Below are positions 7,893 to 59,403 of a stretch of 64,000 bases of DNA, piece by piece. Both the position numbers and the translations under genes were made by a program. The notes beneath the pieces were generated by a model. The model did no database searches, was not told the origin of the DNA, and saw nothing but the letters and a program-made list of their open reading frames with translations. Positions within the stretch are counted from its first letter, which is position 1. Every line of letters starts with the position of its first letter. Origin of the DNA: a virus; the IMG/VR virus record IMGVR_UViG_3300028197_001738, positions 1-64,000 of that record; one strand, 5' to 3'.

Positions 7893-10800
7893 ATGTCAAA
7901 CACTTCCCTTCAACACAATTTACAACTTGATCCAACTCAGCATGTTATATTTAGCGAAGCTTTTAGGAATGGCGATAAACAACCCTTAAATGGAAGAACA
8001 TACTATAACAATCCCCTGTCTGTAACATTGTATGAAGGCGAAATTGCTAAAATAACAGCGACGGGATTGATAAATTTTAATAATCATTGTGACCCCTATA
8101 CTCCCGATGGTAGTGCTACATGTTCTAGTCAGACCGATATGGTCGGAGGTTCTCCTCCCGGAGCATTATATGGAAGATTAGGTTTAGGAAATATTTTCCG
8201 AATAGGGTCATCTTCTACAATTACTGTATCCAAAACACAAGTTTTACATTTATTTTTAATAGACAGACCAGCAGAAGATAATTCAGGTAGCTGGGATATT
8301 ACAGTAGATATTTCTAGTCTTCGAGCTGCTCGTAGAGATGAACAAAACTGTTTTAATAAATTAGATTCAGATTTGCCCCAAGGTTTAAATTGTTGTTCAT
8401 TCATACAAACAGCCCTTCCTAATAGTGCTAATTATGGTAAGAATGCCAATTGGAAAGGTAGTGTTAATTCAAGCCTGCCTTTCGTTTCAGGTAATATAAC
8501 GACTGTGGGCAGTAATGGAGGAGCTAGTTATTACGGAACGCGAGATCAAACAGGGAATGTTGCAGAGATTAACGACGCATATATAGTTGATCCTGTCGGA
8601 GGTGACTCTAGAGGTCTTAGAGGAGGATCTTTTGCAGAACAAATACAGTTTATTTCAAAATCTCATAGAGGGTCCGTGCCTGTTCAAGATGCAGGAGAAT
8701 TTAGTAGCGACATAGGATTTAGATTATCTTCTCCGTATGACGAAGGGGTGTATAGATTCCATAATCAATTTTTGCCTGTTCTTAATTCTGGAAATACCGC
8801 AGACTCTACGAGCTATGGGAATGTTGATTATAATTATTATATCACCAAATTCCCGATTAGTAATACTGAATATGTGCAATTCCTTAATACAGTGGATCCA
8901 AGCGGAGATAATCAGCAGGATTTATTTAAGTCATCTACTCAAAATTTTTATAGAGGCATATCTAACACAGGAACAGTAAGTGGTTCGATATACGGATGTG
9001 ATGTAAATATGGATTTCAAGCCAGTGAATTTGGTAGACTGGTTTAATGCTGCTAGATTTGCTAACTGGTTACATAATAAAGTTTCTATCGGCCCTGATGT
9101 TACTGGGGACGCAGCTACAGAAGATGGAGCTTATACTTTAAATGGCCTTAACAGCGGTGTTGTTTATGCTAATGCTGACGCAAAATACAGAATACCAACT
9201 GAAGATGAATGGTATAAAGCGGCTTATTATGATGGTTCTGTAGATAGTTATTGGAAATATGCGACACAAACCAATGACGACCCAGAACAAGTTTGTGCTA
9301 GTAACGCAGGAGATGGAGGACAGTGCGATCCTCTACCAACTCCAACAGCAACGCCGACGAGTACAGTAACCCCAACAAATACAGCTACCGCTGGTCCTAC
9401 TCCTACACAAACAGCTACAGCTACAGTTACTCCAACAAACACCGCTTCTGCTACAGCGACACCTACTAACACCCCTACTAACACCGTTACTCCAACTAAC
9501 ACTCCTACTTCATCTGTAACTCCTACTCAAACAGCTTCAGCAACAGCTACGACCACAGCTGTTCCTACGGCCACAGCTTCTGTGACACCGACACAAACAC
9601 CAACAAATACTCCTACAAATTCAGTTACTCCTACACAAACAGCTTCAGCAACAGCTACATCTACCACTACTGCCACTCCAACACAAACGCCAACAAATAC
9701 TCCTACTAATTCAGTAACTCCTACCACAACCCCAACAAATACGGCAACTACTACTGCCACGGCCACCACAACACACACTCCAACTAATACTCAAACACCA
9801 ACGAACACACCAACAAATAGTGTGACTCCTACTCAAACACCAACTAATACTGTTACTCCTTCTTCGACAAACACTAGTACTCCCACTCCCACAGCGACAA
9901 CAACGGGTACGGCTACTCCTTCTCCCACAGTCACTAGTACTGTCACTCCAAGTAACACTCAAACGAATACAGCAACTTTAACAGCTACTCCCACTAATTC
10001 CGCAACCCCTACTCAAACGCCAACGAACACGCCAACGCAAACTAATACGGCTAGCCCCAACAGCACACCAACGCTTACGACGACGAACACTCCGACCAAC
10101 ACCTTAACTCAGATGTTCTTCACTCCTACCCCAACGAATACCCCATCGAACACAGCTACTGTTACGCCAACAGCTACTACTACAGCAACAGCTACGCCTA
10201 CAAGTACCACAGAAGCAACAGCAACCCCTACAACAACACAGACAGCAACTGTCACGCCAACCTCATCAGTAACACCTACTATAACCCCTACAACAACTCA
10301 GACTCCAACCAATAGTCCAACCTCTTCTGTAACCCCAACGATAACTCCAACTAGTACTATAACTCCGAGTATTACTCCTACGATCACTCCTTCTGTAAGT
10401 GTCCTTGGGGACACGAACAACATGCAATTAGTTGTTGAAGTCGTTGACGCAGCAGTAACTAGTCAATCAACTCTAACAGTGCTTCTAGACCCAACTGATA
10501 CCTGTGTTATTAATTGGGGAGATGGTGAAGTGGAATATGTCACTAACGAACAACCATCAGTTTACACTCATACCTATTCGGCTAATGGAGTTTATAGAGC
10601 GTCAATTGTAAACCCAATTCAAAGAATAAGTTTTTATGGTTCGGTTGTATTGACCCATGTTTTGAGCTGGGGTAATTCTCCCGAATTAGGAAAATATCCA
10701 GGCTATGGAATGTTTGAACAATGTATAAATTTAGTAGGAGTCCCATCAATATTTCCCGCTAATCTTGTATTCGCATCATATATGTTTGCTGGTTGTAGAA

Positions 10801-11612
10801 AATTGGGCTCGATACCTATAGATCTTAGTGGATGGGACACAACAAGCATAGGTACTGCTGACTCAATGTTCAAAGGATGTATTTCTCTTGGTATGTATAG
10901 TCCTGTTGGTATTCAATATTGGAATTTACCATATCTCGCTGATGCATCCAGTATGTTTCAAGGATGTTTCTCTTTAAATGAATCTATATCCTGGAACCTT
11001 CCTAGTTTGTCAAAAGTAGACAACATGTTCAATAGCTGCAACCTGCTAAATAGCGATATCTCTATGCAGAACATGACTAATCTAAGTAATATTTATGCTA
11101 TGTTTATGGATTGTACTAGTCTTAATAGCAGCATTAATGTAAACACAGCGAACGCAACGTCAATGAGATACATGTTCTACAATTGTAATAGTTTAAATCA
11201 AAATTTAGCAGCAACTATGTCATTCGGCAAACTTGGACAAGGGGATGTTGCTACAAGATCTTGCTCGCTAGAAGGTTTCGCTGGAGGCGCAACAAAACTT
11301 ACTGGTGCCAACTACGATGGACTCTTGCAAGAGTGGAATGATAGTACTTATCCAGTAACTTTCACGAATGTAGATATGGGCCGATCCACTCCTAGCGTTG
11401 GCGCTGGTCAAAACGATAAAATCAGTCTTATTGATAAAGGCTGGACTATATTTGACGGAGAAAACCTCAATTTAAATCCTTCAGCACCTTCAGAGTGTGA
11501 ATTGGATACGCCATTTTATAGTGTGCCACCTCCACCTCCACAACTGCCACCGCCACCTCCACAACTGCCACCGCCTCCACCGCCGCCACCGCCGCCTCCA
11601 CCGCCATATTAG
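7893..11612 (+). CDS. Multidomain adhesin: PA-IL/LecA-like lectin, permuted FGE/CLec domain, long Thr/Pro stalk, PKD-like domain, BspA/DUF285 repeats, poly-Pro tail
   Basis: [11 protein letters not shown]...DNSGSW; [23 protein letters not shown] before [12 protein letters not shown]; INWGDG; repeated ..MF..C..LN; terminal Pro run. Confidence 0.8.
9335..10400 (+). repeat. ~350-codon Thr/Pro/Ala mucin-like tract
   Basis: [18 protein letters not shown] and VTPT units. Confidence 0.9.
11526..11606 (+). repeat. Poly-proline tail including two 21-bp PPPPPQL units
   Basis: ccacctccacctccacaactg / ccaccgccacctccacaactg followed by a Pro run. Confidence 0.9.
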
Positions 11613-12281: not shown

Positions 12282-13889
12282 ATGCTTCCAAAAAATTTTG
12301 ATTGGGAATATTATATTTCTGCCAATCATGACCTACAAAAAGCTGGTATTCAGGACGAAACTTCTGCTATCAAACACTGGTTAGAAAATGGCTATAAAGA
12401 AAATCGTAAGTATTGCGGTTCGAAAAATACTCTGTCTCTGATCGTAGCATGTAAAGACCGAGTATACAATTTGGTCGAAGCATTAAATTCTTGGCTAGAA
12501 ATAGATAGAATTACAGAATGTATAATTGTAGATTATAATTCGAGTCCATCTGTATTAGAAAATGAATACTTTGAGTCTTTAAAAAATAATAGTAAAATTA
12601 AAATTGTTAGAGTTGTTAATAAAGAAAGATTTAATCTGGGGCAAGCATATAATATTGCAATAGATTACTGTAACAATAGAAATATATTAAAAATAGATGC
12701 TGATCATATATGTAAAGATTCTAGTTTTTTAGATTATTTTGTAGAACCCTATGTTCATACATGCTTTCTTCATGGAGACCACATTTTTTGTGATAGTGGT
12801 CTTTCTGGATTTTGCCTTTTCCCTAAAGAAGCGAATGTTTATTATAGAGAAGACCTAAATGCGTGGGGTCATGATGATTTAGATTTCTACAATCGTCTTA
12901 GGCAAAAACCTCATCCTTACGACCCAAAACAAAAATTGAAAGAAGTTATATTTTTTAATATTGACAAGTATATAGAACACAAGCCCCATGCAACAGATAC
13001 TCATTATTATCAAAACAAACACAAAAATAACCATTTAAATAAATCACTATGTTTAATTAATCCTTATTTAGAACCATTAAGACAAGAATATAAATTAAAT
13101 AATAACGAAGAAATTATTTTTAATAATAAAAAAACTATAGATAAAATTTATTGTATTAATCTTGAGCACAGGACGGATAGATGGCAAAACTGTAATAACA
13201 TAACAAATATAGAACGTTTCGATGCTGTTAATACTAGTGATGTTACGGATCAATATATTCAAAACGGGTTAACTTACAAACCTATCGATACGGAAGTAGC
13301 CATATATTTTTATGTACATTCTGGAGCCTATGGAGCATATTTAAGTCATTACTTATTATGGCAGAAAATAGTTGCCAGTGATGTAGACTATGCTTTGGTA
13401 TTAGAAGACGACATAGAGTTAAGTAGTGTTACAAATTTTTTAGACTCTAATCTTTTAATCGAAGAGTATGATTTTATACAACTTTCTAAAAAAATTAGAT
13501 TTGATATATATAACAACGCAATATTTGACGGTGCAGAATCGTATATTATATCTAACAAAGGAGCAAACACGCTATTGTCCTTAACTCATTCTCCATTTTT
13601 ATTTGACAAGTTGGGCGTAAACAAGTATAATAATGCAAACTATGTCGATTCTGTGTCTAATAATTATCGATGGTCAGAACAACCAGCCATCACTTGTCCC
13701 GTAGATAAGTTTATGGGGTATGCTTGTCAGACGGGGTTATTAAAATTTTTCTTGTATCCAACTATTAATATAGATAAAGAATTGTCAAAAAAATCGAACA
13801 TAGCAATAGAAGGTAGTATTAATGCTTGGAATTTTGATTATAATACTATTAAGCATTATTCTAAATTGATTGGAAACATAAATGAGTAG
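12282..13889 (+). CDS. Fused glycosyltransferase: GT-A (GT2/GT7-like) plus GT25
   Basis: IIVDYNS, FNLGQAYN, KIDAD, WGHDDLDF; then IYCINL..R.DRW, RFDAV, G.YLSH..LW, LVLEDD. Confidence 0.85.
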   Translation: MLPKNFDWEYYISANHDLQKAGIQDETSAIKHWLENGYKENRKYCGSKNTLSLIVACKDRVYNLVEALNSWLEIDRITECIIVDYNSSPSVLENEYFESLKNNSKIKIVRVVNKERFNLGQAYNIAIDYCNNRNILKIDADHICKDSSFLDYFVEPYVHTCFLHGDHIFCDSGLSGFCLFPKEANVYYREDLNAWGHDDLDFYNRLRQKPHPYDPKQKLKEVIFFNIDKYIEHKPHATDTHYYQNKHKNNHLNKSLCLINPYLEPLRQEYKLNNNEEIIFNNKKTIDKIYCINLEHRTDRWQNCNNITNIERFDAVNTSDVTDQYIQNGLTYKPIDTEVAIYFYVHSGAYGAYLSHYLLWQKIVASDVDYALVLEDDIELSSVTNFLDSNLLIEEYDFIQLSKKIRFDIYNNAIFDGAESYIISNKGANTLLSLTHSPFLFDKLGVNKYNNANYVDSVSNNYRWSEQPAITCPVDKFMGYACQTGLLKFFLYPTINIDKELSKKSNIAIEGSINAWNFDYNTIKHYSKLIGNINE

Positions 13890-14340
13890 GCCGGATTGGA
13901 CAGATTATTTTTTAGGATTAGCCAAAGTTGTTTCACAGAGGAGTCACGACATACACACTAAGCATGGCTGCGTAATTACAGATCAACAGCATAGAATATT
14001 AGGAGTTGGCTACAATGGCTTTCCAAAAGGCATGGATGATGGATCTCTTCCTACTTCTCGTCCAGAAAAATATCGCTGGATGATTCATGCAGAAAGAAAT
14101 GCATTGTCTAATTGCGTCATTCGTCCAGACAATGGGATTGCTTACATAACAGGACAATGTTGCAATGACTGTATCATGTCTTTGTGGCAAGAAGGCGTTA
14201 CTCATATTGTTATGTCTGACACTCACGGGACTCATTTGTTTGATGAGAGAGAACAAAACATTTTCGATTTATTTGTAAAACAAACAGGTATTAAAATTTC
14301 AAAATGTACACCAAATTTATCTTGGATAAAAAAAATATAG
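13882..14340 (+). CDS. dCMP deaminase
   Basis: RPDW..YF..LA..VS.RS, GYNG.P.G, HAE.NA, CNDC zinc motif. Confidence 0.92.
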   Translation: MSRPDWTDYFLGLAKVVSQRSHDIHTKHGCVITDQQHRILGVGYNGFPKGMDDGSLPTSRPEKYRWMIHAERNALSNCVIRPDNGIAYITGQCCNDCIMSLWQEGVTHIVMSDTHGTHLFDEREQNIFDLFVKQTGIKISKCTPNLSWIKKI

Positions 14341-29409: not shown

Positions 29410-31041
29410 ATGTCAGAATATTTTGCTTTTTCTTGTGGCTGTAAGTTCAAAGTCTTAAATAAAGATTGCGATCCTCCACTTATTGATTTTAATCCTGAAT
29501 TAGAGTCTATAAATCTTAATTGTGAAAAAACTTGGGATCTGATATCTTCTGGTAATACCAAAGGGTGTTTCCAGTTAGAATCTCGCTTAGGCCAGACAAT
29601 GGCCAAGAAGCTAAAACCCTCAAATATTAATGAGCTTTCTGGATTGATAAGTATTCTTAGGCCGGGATGCCTAGAAGCTTATCGTGATGGAAAAAGTGTT
29701 TCCAGTCATTATATAGACAAAAAGAATGGTTTGGAATCAATTGATTATTTTCATCCCGCTTTGGAGCCTATTTTAAAACATACATATTCTGAAATGATTT
29801 ATCAAGAACAAGCTATGTCTATATCTAAAGAATTGGCTGGTTTTGATCTACAACAAGCTGATGAATTAAGAAAAGCTATTGGTAAGAAACAAGCAGATAA
29901 AATGGCAAAGCTTAAAAAGAGCTTTATCAAAGGTTGTGCAAAAAGAAAGTCTGTGTCTAAAGATGAGTCAGAACAGATATTTGGATGGATTGAAAAATCC
30001 CAGAGGTATTTATTTAATGCCAGTCATTCTATTAGTTATGCCATGAATGCCTATCTGTCTGCTTATGCTAAAGCGCATTTCCCTAAAATATTCTTTGCTT
30101 CATATTTACGTTTTGCCAAAGACAAAATGGATTCTCAACAAGAGATTAAAGAGTTGGTAAGAAATGCTAATGAAATGGATATTAAAATTAGCATACCTGA
30201 TTTAAGAAATCTCAATGAATTTTTTATCCTAAAAAACAAAATCATATACTTCGGCCTAACAGACATAAAAGGCGTCGGTCAGTCCGTATATAAAAAAATA
30301 ATAAAGATGGCAGAAGAAAAAGATATTATTGAGTATAGTTGGCTGGAAACTTTATTTGAAGTACTATTAAATATTAATTCAACTGCCAGTAAAGCACTAA
30401 TTTCTTGTGGTGCTCTGGATTATTATAAAAAAAATAGAACAGATATGTTATTCAATTATGATCTTATTTCTGAATTAACAAAAAAAGAATCAGACATATG
30501 CAGAAACATTATATCTGAGTCTAAAAATAAAGATATCAAAATAATAAAAGTGCTAGAGCAACTACTAGAAGCCCCTAGAATACAGAAAAATAGAAAAAAA
30601 ATAATAAATAATATAATTAGCAGTATCAAGAAACCTCCTTACTCCCTGATAGATAAGATAGAGTGGCTGTCCGACTCCGAAAACAATATGCTCGGTGCAT
30701 CAATTACGTGTTTTAAAATTGATACATATGATACTGCTATGGCTAACTGTAATTGTAAAAGCTTTAAAACTTCAGTTGTAAGTAGTAATATTGTCATTGC
30801 TGGAGAAATTAATAATATAAATATTATTAAAACCAAAAAAGGTAAAAATCCTGGACAAGAAATGGCTTTTGTTAGTATTGAAGATCAGTACGGAATACTA
30901 GACTCTGTAATATTTTTCCCTGAACAACTGTCTAAATATAGAACACATCTTTTCAATGGCAATATCTTAATATTCAGCGGTAACAAAAGCAAAGATAAGG
31001 ACGGATTGATAGTAGAAAAATGTTTTATGCCAGCGACTTGA
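29410..31041 (+). CDS. dnaE: DNA polymerase III alpha, C-terminal part (fingers, HhH, OB fold)
   Basis: GCFQLES, LRPG, YQEQ.M, LRKAIGKK, YLFN.SH, FGL..IKGVG, MAFVSIED..G. Confidence 0.92.
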   Translation: MSEYFAFSCGCKFKVLNKDCDPPLIDFNPELESINLNCEKTWDLISSGNTKGCFQLESRLGQTMAKKLKPSNINELSGLISILRPGCLEAYRDGKSVSSHYIDKKNGLESIDYFHPALEPILKHTYSEMIYQEQAMSISKELAGFDLQQADELRKAIGKKQADKMAKLKKSFIKGCAKRKSVSKDESEQIFGWIEKSQRYLFNASHSISYAMNAYLSAYAKAHFPKIFFASYLRFAKDKMDSQQEIKELVRNANEMDIKISIPDLRNLNEFFILKNKIIYFGLTDIKGVGQSVYKKIIKMAEEKDIIEYSWLETLFEVLLNINSTASKALISCGALDYYKKNRTDMLFNYDLISELTKKESDICRNIISESKNKDIKIIKVLEQLLEAPRIQKNRKKIINNIISSIKKPPYSLIDKIEWLSDSENNMLGASITCFKIDTYDTAMANCNCKSFKTSVVSSNIVIAGEINNINIIKTKKGKNPGQEMAFVSIEDQYGILDSVIFFPEQLSKYRTHLFNGNILIFSGNKSKDKDGLIVEKCFMPAT

Positions 31042-31068
31042 CACCATAAAACCAGCATGTATTATAAT
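31038..31068 (+). promoter_or_regulatory. Sigma70-like promoter for ssb
   Basis: TTGACA at 31038-31043 and TATAAT at 31063-31068 (19-nt spacer; alternative TATTAT at 16 nt). Confidence 0.55.
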
Positions 31069-31527: not shown

Positions 31528-31557
31528 AATAGGGGGGAGTTAATCCCCCCTATTTTA
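31528..31557 (+). terminator. Rho-independent terminator
   Basis: AATAGGGGGGA-gttaa-TCCCCCCTATT followed by TT. Confidence 0.85.
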
Positions 31558-31562
31558 TATAT

Positions 31563-33221
31563 ATGAAACCAAAACTTAAAATTTTAATGTGCTCTGAAGC
31601 AAGCTTTCTTAGTTCCGGATTTGGAACATATACAAAAGAGCTTTTGACTAGATTACACAACACAGAAAAGTATAACATAGCAGAATTTGCTTCTTACGGC
31701 TATGTCAATGATCATAGGGATAAAGACATCCCTTGGAAATATTATGCTAATGCAGTAAGAGAGAATGACAGCAGGCATAGAGAATATTCCTCTCGGCAGG
31801 ACAACCAATTTGGAAGATGGAGATTTGAAAAAGTATTGCTGGATTTTAAGCCAGATGTTGTAGTTGATATAAGGGATTACTGGATGAGTGCTTATCAAGG
31901 TATTTCTCCTTTAAGAAAATATTTTCACTGGATTCTAATGCCCACAGTCGACTCTGCTCCACAGCAAGAAGATTGGATTGATACTTATCTTTCTGCCGAT
32001 GCCATATTTAGCTATTCTGACTGGGGAGGACAAGTTATTCAGCAGCAAAGCAGTGGTGCTGTAAACTATATAGATACTGCATCTCCCGGAGTGGATTTAA
32101 ATATCTTTAAACCACAAAACAAAGCCGCTTGCAAAGCATATCTGGGTATTCCAGAAGATTCCATAATTATAGGATCTGTGATGAGAAATCAAAAACGAAA
32201 ACTTATTCCAGAATTACTCCACGCTTTCAGATCGGTATTAGACAACTTAAAAGAAAACAAAGAAGATGAAAAGGCTAAAAAACTATTTCTTTATCTTCAT
32301 ACTAGCTATCCCGATATGGGTTGGGACATCCCCGAACTATTGAAAGATTTAAGATTATGTAATAAGGTGTTTTTTACATATAGCTGTAGAGGATGTAAAA
32401 ATATTAAATCGACTACATTTTCAGGCCCACAAAAAACTTGCAGTAAATGCATGAACAATGCTTGCTTCTTACCCTCTGTCACAGACGGTATCGAACAAGA
32501 AGATTTAAGCAAAATATATAATACTTTTGATATGTATGTTCAGTATTCCATATGCGAAGGTTTTGGTATGCCTCAAGTGGAGGCCGGAGCCTGTGGAGTA
32601 CCCATTGCCACCGTAGACTACAGCGCTATGTGTGACATTGTTAAAAAGTTAAATGCTTTTGCTGTGCCTCCTAAAACTATTTTTAAAGAAATGGAAACTA
32701 AAGCATATCGTGTCTATCCAGATAACGACATCCTAGAACAGCATATACTAAATTTTATAGACAAGCCATCTCCGATACGAAGTCGAATGGGTTCTGAGGT
32801 AAGATCCTTAACAGAACAAAACTACTGCTGGAATAGAATAGCCAAGGTGTGGGAAAAATATTTAGACGAACTCGACGATAGAGGATACAGGTCAGACTGG
32901 AACGCAGAAGCTACTTATATACAAGAGCATGAAATGAATAAAGATGTGTCTAGCGTTCAAAATTTATTTAAATATTGTGCTACGTATGTTTCTGATTTAT
33001 CTAAAATTGGTAGCTATAAATTTTTAAATATACTTAAAGACTCAGACTATGGTTTTACCGTTAAAGGCCCTACTTCCATAGTCCCTGCTGGTAAACAGGA
33101 TATGGAGAATTTCTTTCAAATGTATGCCAAAGCCCATAACACTGCTGAAAAAGCCAGAGTGTCAGGAGCAACATCTCAAGAAGACTTTATAGTATATGCC
33201 AAAATGAAAGCATCTTCATAA
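31563..33221 (+). CDS. GT4 (GT-B) glycosyltransferase with an inserted CxxC..CxxC
   Basis: KILMCSE..SGFG, PGVD..IFKP, MRNQKRK, EGFGMPQVEAGACG (EX7E), W..IA..W. Confidence 0.88.
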   Translation: MKPKLKILMCSEASFLSSGFGTYTKELLTRLHNTEKYNIAEFASYGYVNDHRDKDIPWKYYANAVRENDSRHREYSSRQDNQFGRWRFEKVLLDFKPDVVVDIRDYWMSAYQGISPLRKYFHWILMPTVDSAPQQEDWIDTYLSADAIFSYSDWGGQVIQQQSSGAVNYIDTASPGVDLNIFKPQNKAACKAYLGIPEDSIIIGSVMRNQKRKLIPELLHAFRSVLDNLKENKEDEKAKKLFLYLHTSYPDMGWDIPELLKDLRLCNKVFFTYSCRGCKNIKSTTFSGPQKTCSKCMNNACFLPSVTDGIEQEDLSKIYNTFDMYVQYSICEGFGMPQVEAGACGVPIATVDYSAMCDIVKKLNAFAVPPKTIFKEMETKAYRVYPDNDILEQHILNFIDKPSPIRSRMGSEVRSLTEQNYCWNRIAKVWEKYLDELDDRGYRSDWNAEATYIQEHEMNKDVSSVQNLFKYCATYVSDLSKIGSYKFLNILKDSDYGFTVKGPTSIVPAGKQDMENFFQMYAKAHNTAEKARVSGATSQEDFIVYAKMKASS

Positions 33222-34190
33222 ATGAATATTTTATATGTAGGACCATATAGACAAGATAATTTTTATGGCTTGTATTCTCAAGCAGTTATACAAGATTTGG
33301 GATCAAAACATAATTTAAAACTTAGACCTATATTTTATAATAGCTCACAAATTCAACGAGAAACTCTACCTAATATATTCCCACAACTAGAAAATCAAAC
33401 ACTAGAGAGCTATGATTGTCTAATACAGCATGTGGCACTACAAGATATACTATATACTAACGCTTTCAAAAGAAATATAGTAATTCCTATTATAGATCAT
33501 GAATATGATGACGGTCTTATATCTAACAAAGGTGTTGATGAATTTTTCTTAGACTCTGACTGCGAAAACATACCTTTACCAGAACAAAAGGTAAAGAAAT
33601 TTGAATTAAACCTAGACTTTTCAGTTGACAAAAATCAAATTTTTGATATTGGTCCATTAATAGCAACACGCAAGCTGTATTTTGTTGGGGACTATCAAGA
33701 CAATATAGATATTATATTAAGTACTATTAGGTCTTTTGTATATCTCAACAATTTCTTGGATACAGATATCAGCCTAGCTCTGTTTGTTTTTAATATTAGT
33801 GCTCAAGAAATACAACAAATCAAAGAATACATTAAAAAAGTATATGGTGTTTTTGGCTATAAATTCATAGTTGATAAAATTTCTATCACCCCATTATCTA
33901 TGAATATACAAAATATATTATCTGCACATAATTCTGGTAATATTTTCTTAAATTTAAACACACACGCATGTAATGCAATAAATTCTGTGATTGCTACTAG
34001 TCTATCTAAAGAAGTAGTTGATTTTGAATTAAATAATGATATTAGTAATTTATACATCAATGAAAAACCAACTAAACAATGGATAAAAACTTACACGGAT
34101 AAGTCTATAGTCAACAGTATAAAAACCCATTTCACTGCCAAAAATACGAAACAACCAATTAAGCACAAAAAAATAAATAACTTATTATGA
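33222..34190 (+). CDS. Divergent GT-B-like protein
   Basis: MNILYVGPYRQD..YG N-terminal strand; no intact EX7E. Confidence 0.5.
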   Translation: MNILYVGPYRQDNFYGLYSQAVIQDLGSKHNLKLRPIFYNSSQIQRETLPNIFPQLENQTLESYDCLIQHVALQDILYTNAFKRNIVIPIIDHEYDDGLISNKGVDEFFLDSDCENIPLPEQKVKKFELNLDFSVDKNQIFDIGPLIATRKLYFVGDYQDNIDIILSTIRSFVYLNNFLDTDISLALFVFNISAQEIQQIKEYIKKVYGVFGYKFIVDKISITPLSMNIQNILSAHNSGNIFLNLNTHACNAINSVIATSLSKEVVDFELNNDISNLYINEKPTKQWIKTYTDKSIVNSIKTHFTAKNTKQPIKHKKINNLL

Positions 34191-35044
34191 AATCATTACC
34201 TGTAGCTAATATAGTCAATAGTCTAATATATCAAGATAATTTTAATATCGTTTATGATAGTCATGGAAGCTTATTTGATCTGATTATAAAATCTATGGAC
34301 TTTGCCATACACGACGCAGATATTGCTCATTCGGATATGTGGTATCATTCATTTTTAACTAATAATCCTATAAATTTCACAAATAAATATATGAACACAG
34401 CTATATCTTCTCATTTAAATACATTGGCGATTTTTCATGATGGAGTACCTCCTCAACTCAAAAAAGAGGATGTAATGATATTGCAAAATCAAATTAAAAA
34501 TTCAATTAAGATATTAACAGATGGATCTTTAGCGAGTCAGTGGCTTCCGTCAGATGACAAATGGTATACTGTTAATTATGGCATTCCCTATATAGATCAT
34601 GAGGAAGAAGACAGGACAATAGATTGTATCTTATTTAATTTTAGACAAAATAATAATATCACATCATTATTTGACAATATTAAGAAGTCTATCCCTAATA
34701 GTATGATGATGAATGAGTTACCCAAGAGTTTGGAGGAATTATATTCCATACTAGATAAAACTAAAATTTGTATTGATTTCGACAATCGTATAAATTCCTT
34801 AGTTGCAGCATCAAGGGGATGTTTTAATATAACTTCCTATGAGAACACTTTAATAGGATATTACGAAAGAATTAATTCTACAGAAAGTATTGATCAACTT
34901 ATCCTAAATTGTTTGCAACAGATAGATAAAGACAAGACTATTGAACAAATTAATTTTATAAAACAGCACTATTCGTTTGATATATTTGCAGAAAATTTAA
35001 CAAAGATAATTTCGCATATTTCTAAAGAGGTATTTTTATTATGA
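34187..35044 (+). CDS. Divergent GT-B-like protein
   Basis: VNYGIP, L.KTKI.I...SLVAASRGC..IT, FIKQHYSFDIF..NL. Confidence 0.5.
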   Translation: MKSLPVANIVNSLIYQDNFNIVYDSHGSLFDLIIKSMDFAIHDADIAHSDMWYHSFLTNNPINFTNKYMNTAISSHLNTLAIFHDGVPPQLKKEDVMILQNQIKNSIKILTDGSLASQWLPSDDKWYTVNYGIPYIDHEEEDRTIDCILFNFRQNNNITSLFDNIKKSIPNSMMMNELPKSLEELYSILDKTKICIDFDNRINSLVAASRGCFNITSYENTLIGYYERINSTESIDQLILNCLQQIDKDKTIEQINFIKQHYSFDIFAENLTKIISHISKEVFLL

Positions 35045-35457
35045 GAAGAAGCATAAATATTATATGTGATGACTACCGCAATATAGCAGAGGGGTTTGAG
35101 TCAGTCCATATATCTTCTATTAGTAATTTGGTAGATTTTTCTATAGACACTATATTGTATTATAACATAGGTTATTCTCAAAAAGTTGAATCTAAAAAGA
35201 ATTTGCAAGTACTGTCTAATAAACTACGACCTGGAGGATCTATGGTTGTGAAATTTACTAATCTCGATCTGATATGTAAAAACTATTTAGATAAAAAAAT
35301 AAAAAACAATGAATTAATTGACGCTATTAAACATATTAATACCGGGATGTCTGTAGACGAAATGTTTACATTTATAAATAATGATTCTCTAAGAATAACA
35401 AAAATAGCTAAAGAAAATAATGATATTTCTATGGTAGTTACTAAGGTTAGAGTATGA
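35041..35457 (+). CDS. Truncated/degenerate class I methyltransferase-like protein
   Basis: SIDTI...L..L..KLRPGGSMVV. Confidence 0.45.
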   Translation: MRRSINIICDDYRNIAEGFESVHISSISNLVDFSIDTILYYNIGYSQKVESKKNLQVLSNKLRPGGSMVVKFTNLDLICKNYLDKKIKNNELIDAIKHINTGMSVDEMFTFINNDSLRITKIAKENNDISMVVTKVRV

Positions 35458-36239
35458 CAAATAAAACAATAGGAACAGACTGTTCTAGATGCCACTTTTC
35501 ATCACCCATTACTGAAAACAATAACTGTGAATTTAATATTATTGACAATATTAAAGACATTAAAGAGGTAACAGAAAAAAACGGATATTATTACGTCAAC
35601 AACTATAGTTGTGCGTACGCTTTCCCTAAAGACAAAATTAAAGAATTACTAGAACCATTTCCAGATTTAGATGTAGTGGAATATTCTAAATACAGAAGGT
35701 ATGTAAAATATTATTTGATTATAAACAATATGGACAGTAAAGAAGGAATTGATTATATATGTGAACAGATTAATAAATTAACGATAAAACCACAAGCGAT
35801 ATCTATATTAGTTAAATCCACAGATATGGTTAGCCTTATCGAAGAATGCAACGAAAAAATAAATCATGTTGATGACATGGTATGGAGACTACATAATTTT
35901 AAAAATAAAGACATATCAGAATCAATGGCTATGCACACTGTGTTAAGCACAAGTTCTCATTTAAAGAAATGTCATTTTATTTGGTCTTTAAACGACACAG
36001 ATTTATTATATTCTGCCGATAACAAGCTGATAGAGAATATTAATTTTATTGCAAATGTTATTCAGCCTCCAGTGGGTATACTTAAATCTAAAAAATCAAA
36101 TAATTATCATAGCAATATTTTCATTACTAAAAGCAATTACCAAAATCTAATTAGTCAATTATCTCAAGATCTTGACAAAGCCATTCAAATGTTTCTAGAA
36201 GAAGAACCGGAAGCAGAAATAACTATTTATGATGATTAA
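35454..36239 (+). CDS. Hypothetical protein with Cys-rich N-terminus and possible degenerate GT-A fold
   Basis: CSRC..C..C; I..LTIKPQ.I.I. Confidence 0.45.
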   Translation: MTNKTIGTDCSRCHFSSPITENNNCEFNIIDNIKDIKEVTEKNGYYYVNNYSCAYAFPKDKIKELLEPFPDLDVVEYSKYRRYVKYYLIINNMDSKEGIDYICEQINKLTIKPQAISILVKSTDMVSLIEECNEKINHVDDMVWRLHNFKNKDISESMAMHTVLSTSSHLKKCHFIWSLNDTDLLYSADNKLIENINFIANVIQPPVGILKSKKSNNYHSNIFITKSNYQNLISQLSQDLDKAIQMFLEEEPEAEITIYDD

Positions 36240-36915
36240 TGCTCTTATAATAGCATCTGAAATCACCAAAGGCATGAAATCTCTAGGTTCGAGATCGATG
36301 CTTAATATCAATTCAAAGAATAAAATTATTGATCAACAAATATCTTCTATCAAAACTATTCACAGAAATGCAGAAATTACCATTTCTTGTGGTTTTGAAT
36401 ATGAAAAAATAAATAATTATATTAACAAAAGATATAAAAACATTCAATTAATACATAATAAAGACTATGAAACAACCAATGAAGCCAGAGATATAGAATT
36501 ATTTTTAATCGATAAAAAACCTGATGATATAGATTATTTGTTTATAATCAGCGGTGGCGTTTTATTAAAAAAGAAGGCTATCTCTTTTACTAAAATCAAA
36601 AAGTCCTCAAGAATTTTTTTAATGAGAAGTGTAAAAAATAATTTTAAATTGGGGTGTTCAAAAAAAGATAATATAGAGTATGTGTTTTATGACTTAGACA
36701 TACCTTGGTGTGAGTGCTTATTATTGAATAAAGAAAGTGTTATTAAATTAAAATCTTTTATACAAGGAAACAACGTATTAAATATGTATTTGTTTGAAAT
36801 GTTGAACAGCATACTCACAATAGACGATATCCAACCGTGCTATATTAATAAAAATGACATAATGAAAATTACAAGTTTTGCAGATATAACTAGGGCTAAA
36901 AGTTTTATAACATGA
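36229..36915 (+). CDS. Degenerate NTP-sugar/choline nucleotidyltransferase-like (LicC/GlmU fold)
   Basis: ALIIAS...KGMKSLG..SML.I..IIDQQI..GFEYEKI..NKDYETTN; canonical G.G.R motif altered. Confidence 0.6.
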   Translation: MMINALIIASEITKGMKSLGSRSMLNINSKNKIIDQQISSIKTIHRNAEITISCGFEYEKINNYINKRYKNIQLIHNKDYETTNEARDIELFLIDKKPDDIDYLFIISGGVLLKKKAISFTKIKKSSRIFLMRSVKNNFKLGCSKKDNIEYVFYDLDIPWCECLLLNKESVIKLKSFIQGNNVLNMYLFEMLNSILTIDDIQPCYINKNDIMKITSFADITRAKSFIT

Positions 36916-37619
36916 AAAAAATATTTATAGAATCGATAAACAATAAACTGTTTACAAACCTGAGAATAATTAAAGACAATATACAAATATTTAATGGCAA
37001 CTTAGGTAACAATATATATCAAATATTTTATAAAACTAAATTTGATTCGATAATTATAGCATCAGTTATTAACGAAAGTATAGTCCAGTTTGCAGAAGAG
37101 TTTAAAGATAAAAAAGTATACATATACGATCAAAATAGATCGCTAGATCAAAATATAATAGACAACAACAAGTCTATAGATTTTATCTTGCCATCAAACA
37201 ACAAAACCAATAAACAAGGCAATAGACTAAACATAAACACAAATATGATAAACGATCAGTTGCTACAAAATACTGATGGCTCTAAGCAAAACTATATATC
37301 ATGCTTTTTAGACAGCGTACAAATATTACCACAAGAACTAAATTCAGAACTTTATCCAAACTCGCACAAAAAAATTAAAATGTTTAACAATGTAAAAATA
37401 CAACATCCTCAAAATCTTGGGATAATAACAGAAAGAGAACGGCTTAAAATTCTATCTGAGTCAGAATATTATTTAAATTTAGACGATCAATATGTTATAG
37501 AGGCTGCTATCAATGGATGTAAAATTCTTAGCCTAGAATCTTTGTCAAAATTAAAGCCTATGGATTACGACATCCCTGAATATGAAACATATCAAAACTT
37601 TATTAAGGAATACATATGA
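36912..37619 (+). CDS. Divergent GT-B C-terminal-like protein
   Basis: NLGII.E.E..KILSESEYYL..YVIEAAINGCKIL. Confidence 0.45.
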   Translation: MKKIFIESINNKLFTNLRIIKDNIQIFNGNLGNNIYQIFYKTKFDSIIIASVINESIVQFAEEFKDKKVYIYDQNRSLDQNIIDNNKSIDFILPSNNKTNKQGNRLNINTNMINDQLLQNTDGSKQNYISCFLDSVQILPQELNSELYPNSHKKIKMFNNVKIQHPQNLGIITERERLKILSESEYYLNLDDQYVIEAAINGCKILSLESLSKLKPMDYDIPEYETYQNFIKEYI

Positions 37620-38092
37620 GAGAACTACCAGATATAGGAGTAGTATTATTAAATCTGGATAATAGTCCTGTTTACTCTTTAATTTTAAAAAATTTATCAA
37701 CAATGGCTAGTAAACTACCATACAACCAAGTTGTAGTCTTTTCTAGTTCTTGCACTATCGCAGACACTCAACATGTCCCAGTTCTGCATATAAGTCACGC
37801 TAAATTCTTCCGTGGTATTTTAATACATATCGATGTAAGCGGTTTGATTATTAGTCAGAATTTCCCTAATCTTACTGATAGATATTTATTTGCTTTTGAC
37901 ACCCCTTGGGTTGGTCAAGAAGTAGGGTATAAACAGTGGAAAAGTCTTTTTATAGATAATAATTTAAAAATAATTAGTGCTAATGTTAGTATAGATAATA
38001 TATATAATTTGTGTTGGAAAGAACCATCAGGAATAGCGGAGGATTTTAATCATGAAAGAATACTCGACATTATCGAAAAAACAAAAAGTTGA
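37616..38092 (+). CDS. Hypothetical protein, possible GT N-terminal-like fragment
   Basis: ATGA overlap; alternating beta/alpha pattern. Confidence 0.45.
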   Translation: MRELPDIGVVLLNLDNSPVYSLILKNLSTMASKLPYNQVVVFSSSCTIADTQHVPVLHISHAKFFRGILIHIDVSGLIISQNFPNLTDRYLFAFDTPWVGQEVGYKQWKSLFIDNNLKIISANVSIDNIYNLCWKEPSGIAEDFNHERILDIIEKTKS

Positions 38093-38843
38093 TCTTATAG
38101 ACAAGCTTTATGTTAAAGAAAATAAAAGTTTTGCTGATATAGCAAAAATTTATGGAACATATCCCAATAAAATACTGAGAGACGCGAAGTCTTTTAATGT
38201 GCCTATTCGGACCAAGTCTGAAGCTCAAAAGAACGCACTTAAAACAGGTAAGCACAGACATCCGACCAAGGGGAAGGAAAGATCAGAAGACATTAAAAAC
38301 AAAATAGGTAAAAGCGTAATGAGTGCTTGGGAAAATTTAACAGAATCTGAGTTAAATGATAGAAAAACAAAAGCTCAAGAGAATTGGAGTAAATTAACAG
38401 AAGATAAAAAACTGTCTATTCAAAAATCTGCTACAGATGCTGTTAGATTAGCAAGCAAACTGGGTTCAAAGTTAGAACACTATTTATTAAGAAAACTTAT
38501 AGATAGCGGCTATGCTGTAGACTTTCACAAAGAGCACACTTTGGTAAATACAAAATTGCAGATTGACCTTTTTGTTAGAGACAATAATATAGCAATAGAA
38601 GTCGATGGCCCTTCTCACTTTGCTCCCGTGTGGGGTGAAGAAGTGCTAAAAAGGAATATTGCTTATGATCAAAAAAAAGAAGGACTAATTATAGGCAAGG
38701 GATGGCACTTGATAAGAGTGCAACAGCAAAAAGACTTTTCAAAAACAAGAGCCGACTTTCTTTTCGAAAAATTAAGAAATGCAATTGTTCAAATCATAGA
38801 TTCAAATTCGGATACTGTACTATCGCTAACTATAGAGGATTAA
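38052..38843 (+). CDS. HTH + NUMOD3-like + Vsr/DUF559 endonuclease (homing-endonuclease-like)
   Basis: SFADIAKIYG; KGKERSEDIKNKI; QIDLF..IAIEVDGPSH..DQKK..GW.LIR. Confidence 0.75.
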   Translation: MKEYSTLSKKQKVDLIDKLYVKENKSFADIAKIYGTYPNKILRDAKSFNVPIRTKSEAQKNALKTGKHRHPTKGKERSEDIKNKIGKSVMSAWENLTESELNDRKTKAQENWSKLTEDKKLSIQKSATDAVRLASKLGSKLEHYLLRKLIDSGYAVDFHKEHTLVNTKLQIDLFVRDNNIAIEVDGPSHFAPVWGEEVLKRNIAYDQKKEGLIIGKGWHLIRVQQQKDFSKTRADFLFEKLRNAIVQIIDSNSDTVLSLTIED

Positions 38844-39572: not shown

Positions 39573-39893
39573 ATGAAGGCATCATATAAGGCTAACGACA
39601 AACTGCAATTTGAAGTTCAGGGAGAAGGTCAGAAAGAAATATTTAAAGAACTGGCCGCAATACAAGAAATTTTTGGAGAAACAAAATGCGGTGTGTGTGG
39701 GTCTGAGAACATTAAATTTGTAGTAAGAGCTGTTGATGACAACGAATACTATGAATTGCGATGTATGGACTGTGGAGCTGTTCTTGCTTTTGGTCAGCAC
39801 AAAAAGGGAGGAACTCTCTTTCCTAAACGTAAAGACGAAAAGGGAGAATACATGCCGAATAAAGGATGGTATAAATGGACTAACGCTAAGTAG
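39573..39893 (+). CDS. Zinc-ribbon hypothetical protein
   Basis: CGVC...CMDC; aromatic C-terminus GWYKW. Confidence 0.65.
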   Translation: MKASYKANDKLQFEVQGEGQKEIFKELAAIQEIFGETKCGVCGSENIKFVVRAVDDNEYYELRCMDCGAVLAFGQHKKGGTLFPKRKDEKGEYMPNKGWYKWTNAK

Positions 39894-56334: not shown

Positions 56335-59300
56335 CTATGTAATTGGAGCAGTATTTCTAGCCCTGTACTTAATAATTACTATGCCGCTTCCTCCGGTGGC
56401 TGAAGCTCCTCCTGCTCCTCCAGTATTTGCTGCTCCAGGCGCTCTTCTAGAACCACCTCCGCTGGATGCTCCTCCTCCACAAGAACCTCCTTCTCCGTCT
56501 CCTCCTCCGCCTCCTCCGAATTGATTACTATTTATACATCCATCTGCTATGTCTACGGTTAAACCAGCACCACCATTACCTCCTCTTGTCTGACATCCTG
56601 AGTTGCAACTGCCCCAACCTGCTCCAGCTCCTCCTCCTCCTCCTATGCCTGCTCCTCCTCCACCAGCAATGCAACTGCCGGAACCAAAAGCAGCACCGGT
56701 GTAACCCTGAAGACAGCCATCATTATTACTTAGTGGTCCGCCGTATTTTGCACCGTTCAATTCTATGCAATCACTAGTTCCGTTAGGGTATGTAGTTGGG
56801 TCAGCTGCTATTTGAGCTGCTGTTAGAATAATGAGATCATCAGGATTCTTGCCGCAATCATATTCTTCTGTTGCTCCCCATGGAGCTTGAATCAAGCCAG
56901 CGCCAGGATATCTGCATCCCTGACCACCACCACTTGCTCCTCTACTACCAGGGAAAGCTGTGTTGCCCCTTAATTCTCCACTTCCACCAAAACCACCACC
57001 ACGAGCAACCAGCACCCTTTTTTTTACAGCGTCTCCATCAGGCTGATCTCCTGTTTGACTTGTTGTTTTGTATCTAATTATAACTATTCCGCTTGCTCCG
57101 CTAGCCCAAGGACCACCTCCACCCCCACCAGTATTAGGTGTTCCGTTTGTTTGAGCCGTCGCACCATACCCTGTTCGACCAGGTTTATAGCTTTGTCCAC
57201 CACCTCCGCCATTTCCTTCGGCTGGGGTGTTGTTATATTGTCCAGTATAGAACAAACCAGCCCAGAAGCCTGTTAGACGACCTCCTTGTGCCTCATTGCC
57301 TCTACCTCCGCCTCCTACTCCTCTTAGGTAATAAGCGTTGTCTCCTACACCTTGAGGGCTTCCGCCTCCTCCACCGCCATACCATTGTGTTGTTCCAGAT
57401 ATATCGGTTCCGTATGAAGATCCCCCATCTCCTCCTTTATTATGCCAGGCTGGGCCGCTTCCTTGAGTTGGGTCCCAAGATAGACTACCTCTTCCGGAGA
57501 TACCGGCTCCAGTAGCCCCTCCTCCTCCACCGCCCGACACGGTAGAAGAACCAGATTCAGAATATCCTTGAGGACCTCCAGCAAAACCTTCGCCAGAATC
57601 TCCTCCTTCATTAGCAGATCCAGGACTACCTCCATTAGCTTCTATAATCAATGAGTTTCCTGAGATAGATGAATTAGATCCACTTTGCTTATATATGCCT
57701 CCATCACCAATAACAATATTATATTGCCCTGTAGATGGGAAAATTATATCTCGTTGATGCTTAACACCACCGCTGCCTCCTCCTCCACCAATTAATGATT
57801 CATTTGGTGATCTTCCAGCTCCTCCGCCACCCCCAACAACTAGAATATCAAATTTTGCATCAGCGGGCAAGCTGCCAATGCCGAATGTTCCATTTTGTTT
57901 AAAGGTATGTATGGTATATTCTCCAACAGTAGTTTTTTCTCCACCATTAGCAAATATTTCTGTGTCTGGAGCATCTGGGTCTTGTGGCTCAGGAGCAGCG
58001 CCATTATAGAATATACTACTGTTCTTACCCCTAGCTCCAGGGGCTCCGCCATCTCCAACATGTATGTCGTAAACTCCAGCTCCATCTGCACCATTTTGAT
58101 TTAAAGAATAAGATGTTCTTAATGCAGCTCCTCCTGATCCTCCTCCACCAGCAGCTCTATTTACTGGGCCGCTTCCGCCGCCTCCACCACCTCCCATTAA
58201 GAAGACATCGAAAACAGCGTCATTATCTATAGTATTAATCGTAAAGGTATCATCATTTGTAAAGATATGAACATTATAATCTCCTTGAGTACACAATGTG
58301 CCACCAGTGGCATCGACGTTAGGAACTCTAGCTCTACATACCTGTAGTTCTCCTATCCAATTCCCTGATGTTGCAGCAACGGACTCCCAAGCATTTGTCA
58401 CATCGTTCCATGCCCAATGAAATTGAGCTCCAGGATTAGGATAATTTGTTTGATTAACAAACAACCCACACTTTGCCATACTATCAATAAGGCAAATTTC
58501 TACATTGTTTTCAGCTTCTATTTGTCTGATTTTGTTAATAGTTATTTGATCAAGTCTTACGGTAGCTGTTCCATTTTGTGTATCTAAACCATATCTAGCA
58601 GCAATCTTTTCTGGAGCACAAAAGTACAGAGAAAAACCTGGAGTATGACTTGGTGTCGGTGTTGGGGTGTGAGTATTAGTTGCCGTAGGAGTTGCTGTAG
58701 CCGTAGCAGTAGGAGTTGCTGTTGCTGTAGCTGTGGGAGTAGCTGTTCCTGTTGCTGTTGCTGTGGCTGTTGCAGTAGGGGTTGCTGTTGCTGTTTCTGT
58801 AGCAGTATTAGTCACAGCAGGAGTGTGTGTATTAGTTGGCGTTATACTAGGAGTAGGAGTATTTGTAGGTGTTTCTGTTTGCGTAGGAGTTGGTGTTTTT
58901 GTTGGCGTTCTACTAGCAGTAGCAGTAGGAGTACTAAAAGCTGTTGCTGTGTTCGTTGGAGTAGGGGTATTACTTGCAGTATTAGACGGAGTAACAGTAT
59001 TAGTAGGAGTTATAGTAGGAGTGACGCTATTAGTAGGAGTAGGACTAGCTGTAGCCGTTGTAGTAGGTGTAGCCGTTGTAGTAGTAGTAGGTGTATTAGT
59101 TGGGGTTTTAGTTGGTGTGACTGTAGGAGTAGGAGTTGGACATAAGTAAACAGTGTTTTGTGAATAAACATCTCCATTAAAGTTATTGGTAGTTATAACT
59201 TCAAGCAAAACCAAATTTACATGTTGACTTTTTCTCAATAAAAAAGGAACAGTTTTCTTATTAGAATTAGCGGTAAAAGTAACTGTATCTCTATCTATTT

Positions 59301-59403
59301 CAGCGAATTCATCATAAGTGTTTCTTAGCTTAACCTTAACAGTATATTCATTTCCTACAATAAGATCTTCTAGATCAATATTTATAATGTCTGTTGTTAT
59401 CAT
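56335..59403 (-). CDS. Fibre-like protein: Thr/Pro stalk plus two glycine-rich domains
   Basis: TPT repeats; two copies of Y..H.F...TF..FD.L..GGGG.G and GSG.VII(R/K)Y. Confidence 0.8.
58640..59140 (-). repeat. Thr/Pro/Ala mucin-like coding tract
   Basis: [10 protein letters not shown]...TATATATPT. Confidence 0.9.

Follow-up and report, generated by a model that had tools for sequence, protein, structure and literature searches.

A conserved operon of eight glycosyltransferase-related genes in an uncultured marine phage and its possible role as a soluble glycosylation machine

The DNA analyzed here (the window) is the first 64 kb of IMGVR_UViG_3300028197_001738, a 95.7-kb single-contig IMG/VR virus record with a CheckV completeness of ~66%, and it derives from an uncultured marine phage that recurs in marine metagenomes of several studies. 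Positions 31563–38092 of the window are filled by eight plus-strand open reading frames (ORFs), designated o1 to o8, which encode 552, 322, 285, 138, 261, 228, 235, and 158 amino acids (aa), respectively, and whose successive junctions abut or overlap by 0, 4, 4, 4, 11, 4, and 4 nt. An initial annotation, made from the letters of the DNA alone, had delimited this block as eight tightly overlapping genes following ssb, and the ORFs indeed occupy exactly that interval. Its proposal of a phage-encoded cytoplasmic glycosylation system without membrane-bound or exported members is also supported: seven of the eight products have glycosyltransferase (GT) or nucleotidyltransferase folds, none is indicated to carry a transmembrane segment or signal peptide (every 19-residue Kyte-Doolittle window is ≤1.3), and the operon is conserved and selected. 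A GT, nucleotidyltransferase, or methyltransferase fold could be assigned to each product, with support that is uneven among them, as listed here.

31563–33221, plus strand: o1, a canonical GT4 (GT-B) glycosyltransferase of 552 aa (Pfam Glycos_transf_1, 2.4e-14; PHROG 2170, 5e-26)
33222–34190, plus strand: o2, a GT4-derived GT-B protein without the EX7E motif (hidden Markov model [HMM] link to Pfam-positive orthologs)
34187–35044, plus strand: o3, a protein with a predicted compact GT-B fold without EX7E (AlphaFold2 model with pLDDT 93 and pTM 0.90; Foldseek against the PDB)
35041–35457, plus strand: o4, an apparent 138-aa stand-alone remnant of the class-I methyltransferase fold with a K-L-R-P-G-G region (weak Pfam and CmoM matches)
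35454–36239, plus strand: o5, an N-terminal four-cysteine zinc ribbon plus a predicted GT-A (nucleotide-diphospho-sugar transferase) fold (AlphaFold2 model with pLDDT 95; VIA; Foldseek)
36229–36915, plus strand: o6, a putative LicC/GlmU-like nucleotidyltransferase (sub-threshold profile matches)
36912–37619, plus strand: o7, a predicted compact GT-B protein with only the second Glu of EX7E (ESM Atlas model)
37616–38092, plus strand: o8, a predicted lone Rossmann-like domain that corresponds to one of the two halves of a GT4 GT-B (ESM Atlas model, pTM 0.86)

By sequence, o1 is the one intact, canonical retaining-type GT4 that had been recognized at the outset. Its match to Pfam Glycos_transf_1 (53.7 bits) is above the gathering cut-off of 26.4, and both glutamates of EX7E, E332 and E340, are invariant in all 35 orthologs, as are the four cysteines (C275, C278, C293, and C296) of a zinc ribbon inserted into its C-domain; the C-terminus bears a variable extension of ~110 aa. 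The best NCBIfam matches of o1 were MshA and BshA-type models, far under their cut-offs, and a phmmer search against the PDB gave no match at E ≤ 0.001. The window copies of o2–o8 had no significant match in Pfam or PHROG. Nevertheless, o2 is homologous to GT4 and has lost EX7E while its sister-clade orthologs keep it. An HMM built from 45 EX7E-less orthologs recovered three EX7E-bearing orthologs at 6e-52 to 3e-48, and these three, which come from the deepest sister clade, are positive for Glycos_transf_1 (9e-11), with GEAFCRPAAEA as their EX7E sequence. In the window copy, the two Glu positions are taken by Ala and Ile; only 3 of 48 orthologs retain the second Glu, and in the other 45 its place is mostly taken by one of Y, I, L, F, and M.

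The GT-B-like ORFs with eroded motifs of the initial annotation correspond to o2, o3, o7, and the half GT-B o8, with VAASRGC lying in o3 and IEAAINGC in o7. The AlphaFold2 model of o3 matched SenB, TarM, PimA, BshA, SdgB, and GtfA in the PDB by Foldseek (best E of 1e-7, ranging up to ~1e-5; probability 1.0 for the best; TMq 0.5–0.63), and its best structural matches include the small-molecule GT-B enzymes SenB, BGluT, and BshA. At its EX7E-equivalent positions o3 has D/S and L, so that neither Glu is present, and an N-domain motif, KKED (residues 92–95), is kept at each position in at least 41 of 47 orthologs (87–96%). This motif falls within the loop behind the fourth strand of the N-domain and the beginning of the helix that follows, which is where the catalytic base is found in some inverting GT-B enzymes. 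The nearest viral structural neighbors of o3 are giant-virus and archaeal-virus glycosyltransferases, and no DNA glucosyltransferase occurs as a named entry among its top 50 viral neighbors. The structures of o7 and o8 are ESM Atlas’s own models. That of o7 resembles GT4, GT28, and DUF354 clusters (TM 0.56–0.66 over residues 1–235); 48 of 52 orthologs retain its E197 (in E197-A198), the position of the first Glu is variable, and H165, N168, and G170 form a conserved cluster. Comparison by hhalign linked o3 with o7 at 81% probability and o1 with o3 at 49%, around the o7 E197 helix. The o8 model matched one of the two domains of GT4 clusters (TM-by-query 0.74–0.81, TM-by-target 0.22–0.40), and no fused longer forms of o8 were found, which is weak evidence.

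The Cys-rich ORF goes beyond that first description, as the Cys cluster of o5 forms a zinc ribbon (C10, C13, C25, and C53, all invariant) that precedes a predicted GT-A fold. Residues 82–261 align with GT2-type glycosyltransferases and sugar nucleotidyltransferases at VIA Z of 10.5–13.5 (root-mean-square deviation 3.0–3.5 over 150–170 residues), and Foldseek agrees. A conserved DxD motif is missing, as 44 o5 orthologs share no invariant or near-invariant Asp and the position after the fourth strand is variable; the conserved polar residues are W144, K145, and H147. As for the ORF described as LicC/GlmU-like but lacking G.G.R, the loss of the signature stands: the GxGxR loop is not present in 44 o6 orthologs, and the invariant loop E-I-T-K-G-M-K-S-x-G-S-K (KGMKSxGSK), which aligns to the UGPase loop, takes its place. 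The family assignment, however, is sub-threshold. PDB profile matches to PntC, UGPases, and GlmU (E of 0.01–0.3) are aligned on the signature loop, the NCBIfam model of archaeal sugar-1-phosphate nucleotidylyltransferases gave 3.3e-5 (23 bits versus a cut-off of 600), the window copy had no match in Pfam, and JGI names the orthologs ‘CTP:phosphocholine cytidylyltransferase-like’; together these are consistent with a LicC/GlmU-like nucleotidyltransferase. The best conserved of o2–o8, o6 has 18 invariant residues in 44 orthologs, including K14, K17, E162, and E190, and is basic (pI 9.2), while acidic to neutral values (median pI 5.5–6.5) are found for the GT-like proteins. For the methyltransferase-like ORF, LRPGG is present in o4, but support remained below thresholds and the protein looks like a remnant. 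Three of 71 family members match Pfam Methyltransf_31 (best 4.8e-5) and others match Methyltransf_25, Methyltransf_24, or Anamorsin_N; with a weak CmoM match, these hits are weak but agree in suggesting the C-terminal portion of a class-I methyltransferase. The S-adenosylmethionine-binding, Gly-rich motif I (GxGxG) is absent from the 138 aa. The o4 family comprises 1058 cluster representatives (50% identity) at E ≤ 0.001, with lengths of 127–146 aa among the 150 listed. PDB profile searches with o3, o4, o5, o7, and o8 gave nothing significant, and an LRRTM match of o4 in such a search was rejected as a repeat artefact.

Relatives were gathered from IMG/VR with o1 and then o6 as probes, giving 103 loci, and each of o2–o8 was detected by HMM in 85–100 of them. 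The order dnaE-ssb-o1-o2-o3-o4-o5-o6-o7-o8-o9-o10-o11 is constant wherever the contig extends (~100 loci), with exceptions for o5 and o3. A subclade of 14 loci (L027, L035, L037, L045, L051, and related loci) has no o5, and o4 adjoins o6 there; o3 was undetected in two loci, where an unrecognized ORF of ~250 aa occupies its place. In L015, a 126-aa ORF is all that stands at the place of o3. Identity among relatives is 21–47% for o2–o8 versus 54–80% for the flanking genes. Estimates of dN/dS (Nei-Gojobori, independent moderately diverged pairs), which are approximate because dS is near saturation, were 0.055 for o1, 0.12 for o2, 0.18 for o3, 0.10 for o4, 0.14 for o5, 0.08 for o6, 0.15 for o7, and 0.07 for o8, compared with 0.02–0.04 for the flanking ssb, dnaE, and o9. 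All eight genes are thus under purifying selection rather than evolving neutrally, and o2, o3, o5, and o7 (0.12–0.18) are relaxed relative to the flanking replication genes. The same genes stand in the same order in ~100 independent viral contigs, which places the block far beyond chance; the synteny and dN/dS comparison that had been suggested for it gave a kept gene order and non-neutral ratios throughout. Among 185,579 species genomes of cellular organisms, the block occurred in two contigs of metagenome-assembled genomes only. A DNA search of phage isolates gave no match, and a protein search of isolates with o1 found homologs only in Synechococcus phage S-CBS4 and Tetrasphaera phage TJE1, at 22–24% identity. 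Thus, o1–o8 constitute a single conserved operon that is probably translationally coupled, and the start/stop overlaps of 4–11 nt, together with the constant gene order in ~100 loci, fit stoichiometric co-production.

Our preferred interpretation, which we hold tentatively and with slightly less than even confidence, is that the block encodes a soluble cytoplasmic glycosylation machine, in which one catalyst and several non-catalytic partners act on a macromolecular acceptor made during infection. In such a machine o1 is the certain catalyst and o6 the probable donor-activating enzyme. The latter would activate the donor, a sugar-1-phosphate or phospho-alcohol, as an NDP or CDP derivative, and o1, possibly also o3 and o7, would transfer residues to the macromolecule. 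The remaining products would not be complete enzymes and may hold or select the acceptor, as GtfB, an inactive GT-B protein, does for the GT4 enzyme GtfA: o2 has lost EX7E, o8 is half of a GT-B, o4 looks like what is left of a methyltransferase, and o5, which perhaps also belongs here, is a GT-A without DxD. The proposal of helper subunits is made because only o1 among the eight keeps a textbook catalytic motif, and o8 and o4 could not be full enzymes alone because the former is a single half-domain and the latter a 138-aa remnant. The pseudo-enzymes put forward in the initial annotation are accordingly plausible for o2, o8, o4, and o5, but the eroded motifs of o3, o6, and o7 do not prove inactivity. 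What is distinctive about the block is the number of degenerate GT-fold members combined with strict operon conservation.

GtfA and GtfB form the O-GlcNAc transferase pair of the accessory Sec system, which acts on the serine-rich-repeat adhesins of streptococci and staphylococci and is followed by further soluble GTs. This pair with its follow-on GTs is the closest working model for the block, for which we do not claim membership. In both cases the products are cytoplasmic and soluble, a canonical GT4 gene stands beside one for a GT-B-fold protein with a degenerate donor site, and further GT-fold genes follow in the operon; in addition, the long Ser/Thr-rich repeats that serve as GtfA/GtfB acceptors have a possible counterpart in Pro/Thr-rich stalks of this phage, and o3 has GtfA among its structural matches, as does o1 among its weak NCBIfam matches. 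Nevertheless, sequence similarity is at the superfamily level only, and the phage block has as many as six degenerate partners, one of them a half-domain and another a methyltransferase remnant, lies in a phage genome without secretion genes, and occurs in one relative that lacks a repeat-rich acceptor.

Several observations weigh against a machine of one catalyst and inactive helpers. Many GT-B families work without EX7E (CAZy GT1, GT28, and GT63 among them), so that motif loss is no proof of inactivity, and o3, o6, and o7 keep invariant polar residues. The assignments of o6 and o4 lie below curated thresholds, and the similarity of o1 to GtfA is weak (NCBIfam 1.4e-5, far under the cut-off). 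Moreover, a complete relative, G002, carries the block but no Pro/Thr-rich protein, and the block is placed in the replication arm, with ssb before it and an endonuclease-like gene after it, rather than among structural genes. The first of these points also suit a plain assembly line, in which most or even all of the products would be active though highly divergent enzymes, each responsible for the addition or tailoring of a single residue of a complex glycan, with no pseudo-enzyme and no obligate complex. Each family has its own invariant polar residues (KKED in o3; H165, N168, G170, and E197 in o7; K14, K17, E162, and E190 in o6; W144, K145, and H147 in o5), and purifying selection acts on all members. 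However, neither the half-domain o8 nor the remnant o4 is a complete enzyme alone, the nucleotide-binding Glu of o2 has given way to hydrophobic residues in 45 of 48 orthologs, and o5 lacks a conserved acidic motif, with one subclade doing without it entirely. On balance, an assembly line of this kind seems to us rather unlikely.

For a one-catalyst machine with helper subunits, the leading acceptor candidate is the proteins of the phage particle, in particular the long Pro/Thr-rich stalks, a choice that we regard as possible but doubtful, with DNA in second place. The stalk genes are the following.

6249–7862, 7893–11612, and 56335–59403: Pro/Thr-rich stalk proteins with mucin-like (T-P-T-x)n stretches of ~150–350 residues

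Proteins with Pro/Thr-rich stretches number three in this genome and six in the relative G001, the stretches spanning roughly 100 to 600 residues. They resemble classical O-glycosylation substrates and are possible protein acceptors. As a universal acceptor the stalks were rejected, because the complete G002 has the block without any Pro/Thr-rich stretch. A separate 535-aa GT2+GT25 fusion (12282–13889) is encoded just downstream of two of the stalk genes and adjoins the dCMP deaminase gene.

Decoration of virion proteins by virus-encoded enzymes has precedents of several kinds. In giant viruses and chloroviruses, cytoplasmic multi-GT clusters, such as the Mimivirus fibril clusters and the PBCV-1 capsid GTs, decorate virion surface proteins. 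Like the block, these are virus-encoded, cytoplasmic clusters with their own nucleotide-sugar enzymes, and giant-virus GTs are the top viral structural neighbors of o3; unlike it, they serve in eukaryotic hosts and include recognizable active sugar-synthesis enzymes, and they have no specific orthology to the block. Among phages, the mycobacteriophages Che8, Corndog, and Myrna are described as having virion glycosylation operons (Freeman et al., 2023, as cited in PMC12619734). The distant o1 homologs also sit in short glyco-cassettes, between portal and protease in S-CBS4 (glycosyltransferases and a methyltransferase) and upstream of the terminase genes in TJE1 (a nucleotidyltransferase, a nucleotide-sugar epimerase, a methyltransferase, and one glycosyltransferase). 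The mycobacteriophage, S-CBS4, and TJE1 cassettes share with the block phage-encoded soluble GTs, some accompanied by a methyltransferase or nucleotidyltransferase, and are thought to decorate the capsid or tail, whereas they are short (2–5 genes), lie among head and packaging genes, and have members that look like ordinary enzymes. Beyond the o1 homologs, hhalign gave no meaningful similarity between the other cassette members compared (methyltransferase and galactosyltransferase of S-CBS4, nucleotidyltransferase of TJE1) and o4, o5, and o6, which counts against virion proteins as the target.

The genomic surroundings of the block, by contrast with those cassettes, are a replication and nucleotide-metabolism arm that runs on the plus strand from ~12 to 40 kb. 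This arm encodes the GT2+GT25 fusion, dCMP deaminase, ribonucleotide reductase, PhoH, RecA, DnaB, primase, a T4-type dNMP kinase, an exonuclease, SSB, and a split DnaE with DnaQ between the two halves; giant structural proteins are encoded on the minus strand from 40.3 kb onward. Two features border the block.

31528–31554, plus strand: a GC-rich hairpin plus T-run, terminator- or attenuator-like, between ssb and o1 (terminator scan: 11 pairs, 6 of them GC)
38052–38843, plus strand: o9, a basic (pI 9.6) endonuclease-like protein (PHROG 559 ‘HNH endonuclease’, 3.9e-10; Pfam REase_MTES_1575, 0.001, below the cut-off)

A strong sigma-70-like promoter precedes ssb (31038–31065, 11 of 12 matches), and of the 61 distinct ssb-o1 spacers in relatives, 47 contain a stable hairpin (minimum free energy below -8) whose stem and loop sequences vary. 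Because the ssb promoter lies upstream and the hairpin with its T-run separates ssb from o1, expression of o1–o8 is probably lower than that of ssb and would occur via read-through or from an unrecognized promoter. At the other border, the start of o9 overlaps the end of o8 by 41 nt, and the protein carries the motif D...E-V-D-G-x-x-H. Since it lies directly 3′ of o8 in every relative and is conserved at 54–63% identity, o9 resembles a resident gene more than it does a mobile homing endonuclease; this fixed neighbor may or may not belong to the glycosylation system. Further on, o11 (39573–39893) encodes a 106-aa CxxC...CxxC zinc-ribbon protein that is 67–76% conserved; two NCBIfam models match it below threshold, the ECs_2282 family (1.6e-5) and the Lar restriction-alleviation proteins (0.0016).

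This setting gives some weight to DNA glycosylation, in which an oligosaccharide would be built on new phage DNA as protection from restriction or CRISPR, the acceptor base being made by an undescribed route. The block lies inside the arm, directly after dnaE-ssb and before the conserved basic endonuclease-like o9, and the same arm supplies dCMP deaminase (13882–14340) and the T4-type dNMP kinase. The resemblance of o11 to Lar-type zinc ribbons (below cut-off), the zinc ribbons of o1 and o5, and the fast evolution of o2–o8 point in the same direction, and the phage GT-A and GT-B enzymes that glycosylate 5-hydroxymethylcytosine resemble teichoic-acid and BshA/MshA-type enzymes (bioRxiv 10.1101/2023.12.21.572611). 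All known phage DNA glycosylations, however, begin with a hydroxylated pyrimidine, which is made by a ThyA homolog or by a methyltransferase and a TET/JBP dioxygenase, and then add up to three sugars stepwise (PMC13326640; bioRxiv 10.1101/2023.12.21.572611). No ThyA homolog, C5-methyltransferase, TET/JBP, or DpdA/TGT (PF00303, PF00145, PF12851, and PF01702) was found in the present record (G000) or in four relatives that are 87, 94, 95, and 100% complete; the negative result for TET is weak, as the PF12851 model gave a match in only one control genome, and there below the cut-off. Glycosylation of DNA by the known routes is thus weakened, because the acceptor-making enzymes were not found in near-complete relatives. 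In addition, the T4 beta-glucosyltransferase family (PF09198) was unmatched, the GT-like proteins are acidic to neutral, no C-terminal docking tail is shared with the replication proteins, and seven GT-fold proteins far exceed any known DNA glycosylation pathway, with its at most about three sugars. Pyle et al. rate GT contigs without a neighboring base-modifying enzyme as less likely to act on DNA. Compared with the described pathways (the T4 alpha- and beta-glucosyltransferases; arabinosyl-5-hydroxycytosine in RB69 and DLP3, PMC13326640; the methyltransferase/TET-dependent GT clusters, bioRxiv 10.1101/2023.12.21.572611), the block shares GT-A and GT-B proteins, putative donor synthesis, and a location with the replication genes of lytic phages, but it has no detectable acceptor-making enzyme and many more GT-fold proteins, mostly with degenerate motifs. 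Taken together, we judge DNA glycosylation to be an improbable function of the block. A more specific variant, a heteromeric factory of one GT4 and up to six GT-fold pseudo-enzyme subunits that would act during replication, on DNA or on a target tied to replication, without a ThyA- or TET-made hydroxyl, is in our view very improbable.

As a side observation on nucleotide metabolism, the phage encodes dCMP deaminase, dNMP kinase, and ribonucleotide reductase yet no thymidylate synthase of either type; none was found in G000, G001, G003, or G004, and an ordinary ThyX occurs in G002 only.

The target may also be a host component, or the product a soluble glycoside of the kind made by BshA, MshA, or SenB, either of which would aid take-over or counter-defence. 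Such a role would be in keeping with the apparently early or middle expression of the block, together with the replication genes, with SenB, BGluT, and BshA among the best structural matches of o3, and with MshA and BshA-type models as the best NCBIfam matches of o1 far under cut-offs. Fold likeness gives no acceptor, however, and the block has neither partner biosynthetic genes for such a metabolite nor the membrane or export components that an envelope target would call for, which leaves this explanation quite unlikely.

Clusters of phage glycosyltransferases are already known to protect DNA or to shield virions. The block analyzed here belongs to the constant core of a phage lineage that is widespread in aquatic settings, and this module is composed almost wholly of GT-fold proteins without textbook catalytic motifs that are nonetheless under selection. 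If its degenerate members do act as regulatory or substrate-selecting subunits of a one-catalyst machine, the block would be an extreme viral case of pseudo-enzyme recruitment and a compact system for revealing how inactive GT-B paralogs steer an active one. The identity of the acceptor would distinguish particle glycosylation from an undescribed DNA modification in abundant marine phages, and either target would affect the host range and defence evasion of such phages as well as their appearance in metagenomes. According to the ‘moraphage’ paper, a jumbo aquatic lineage, which may or may not be the present one, has four core GT orthogroups (PMC12619734). Outside the block, some relatives carry additional ordinary GT4 genes of ~350–390 aa (G002:C1:50550-50963, G003:C1:30691-31086, and G004:C1:8474-8866).

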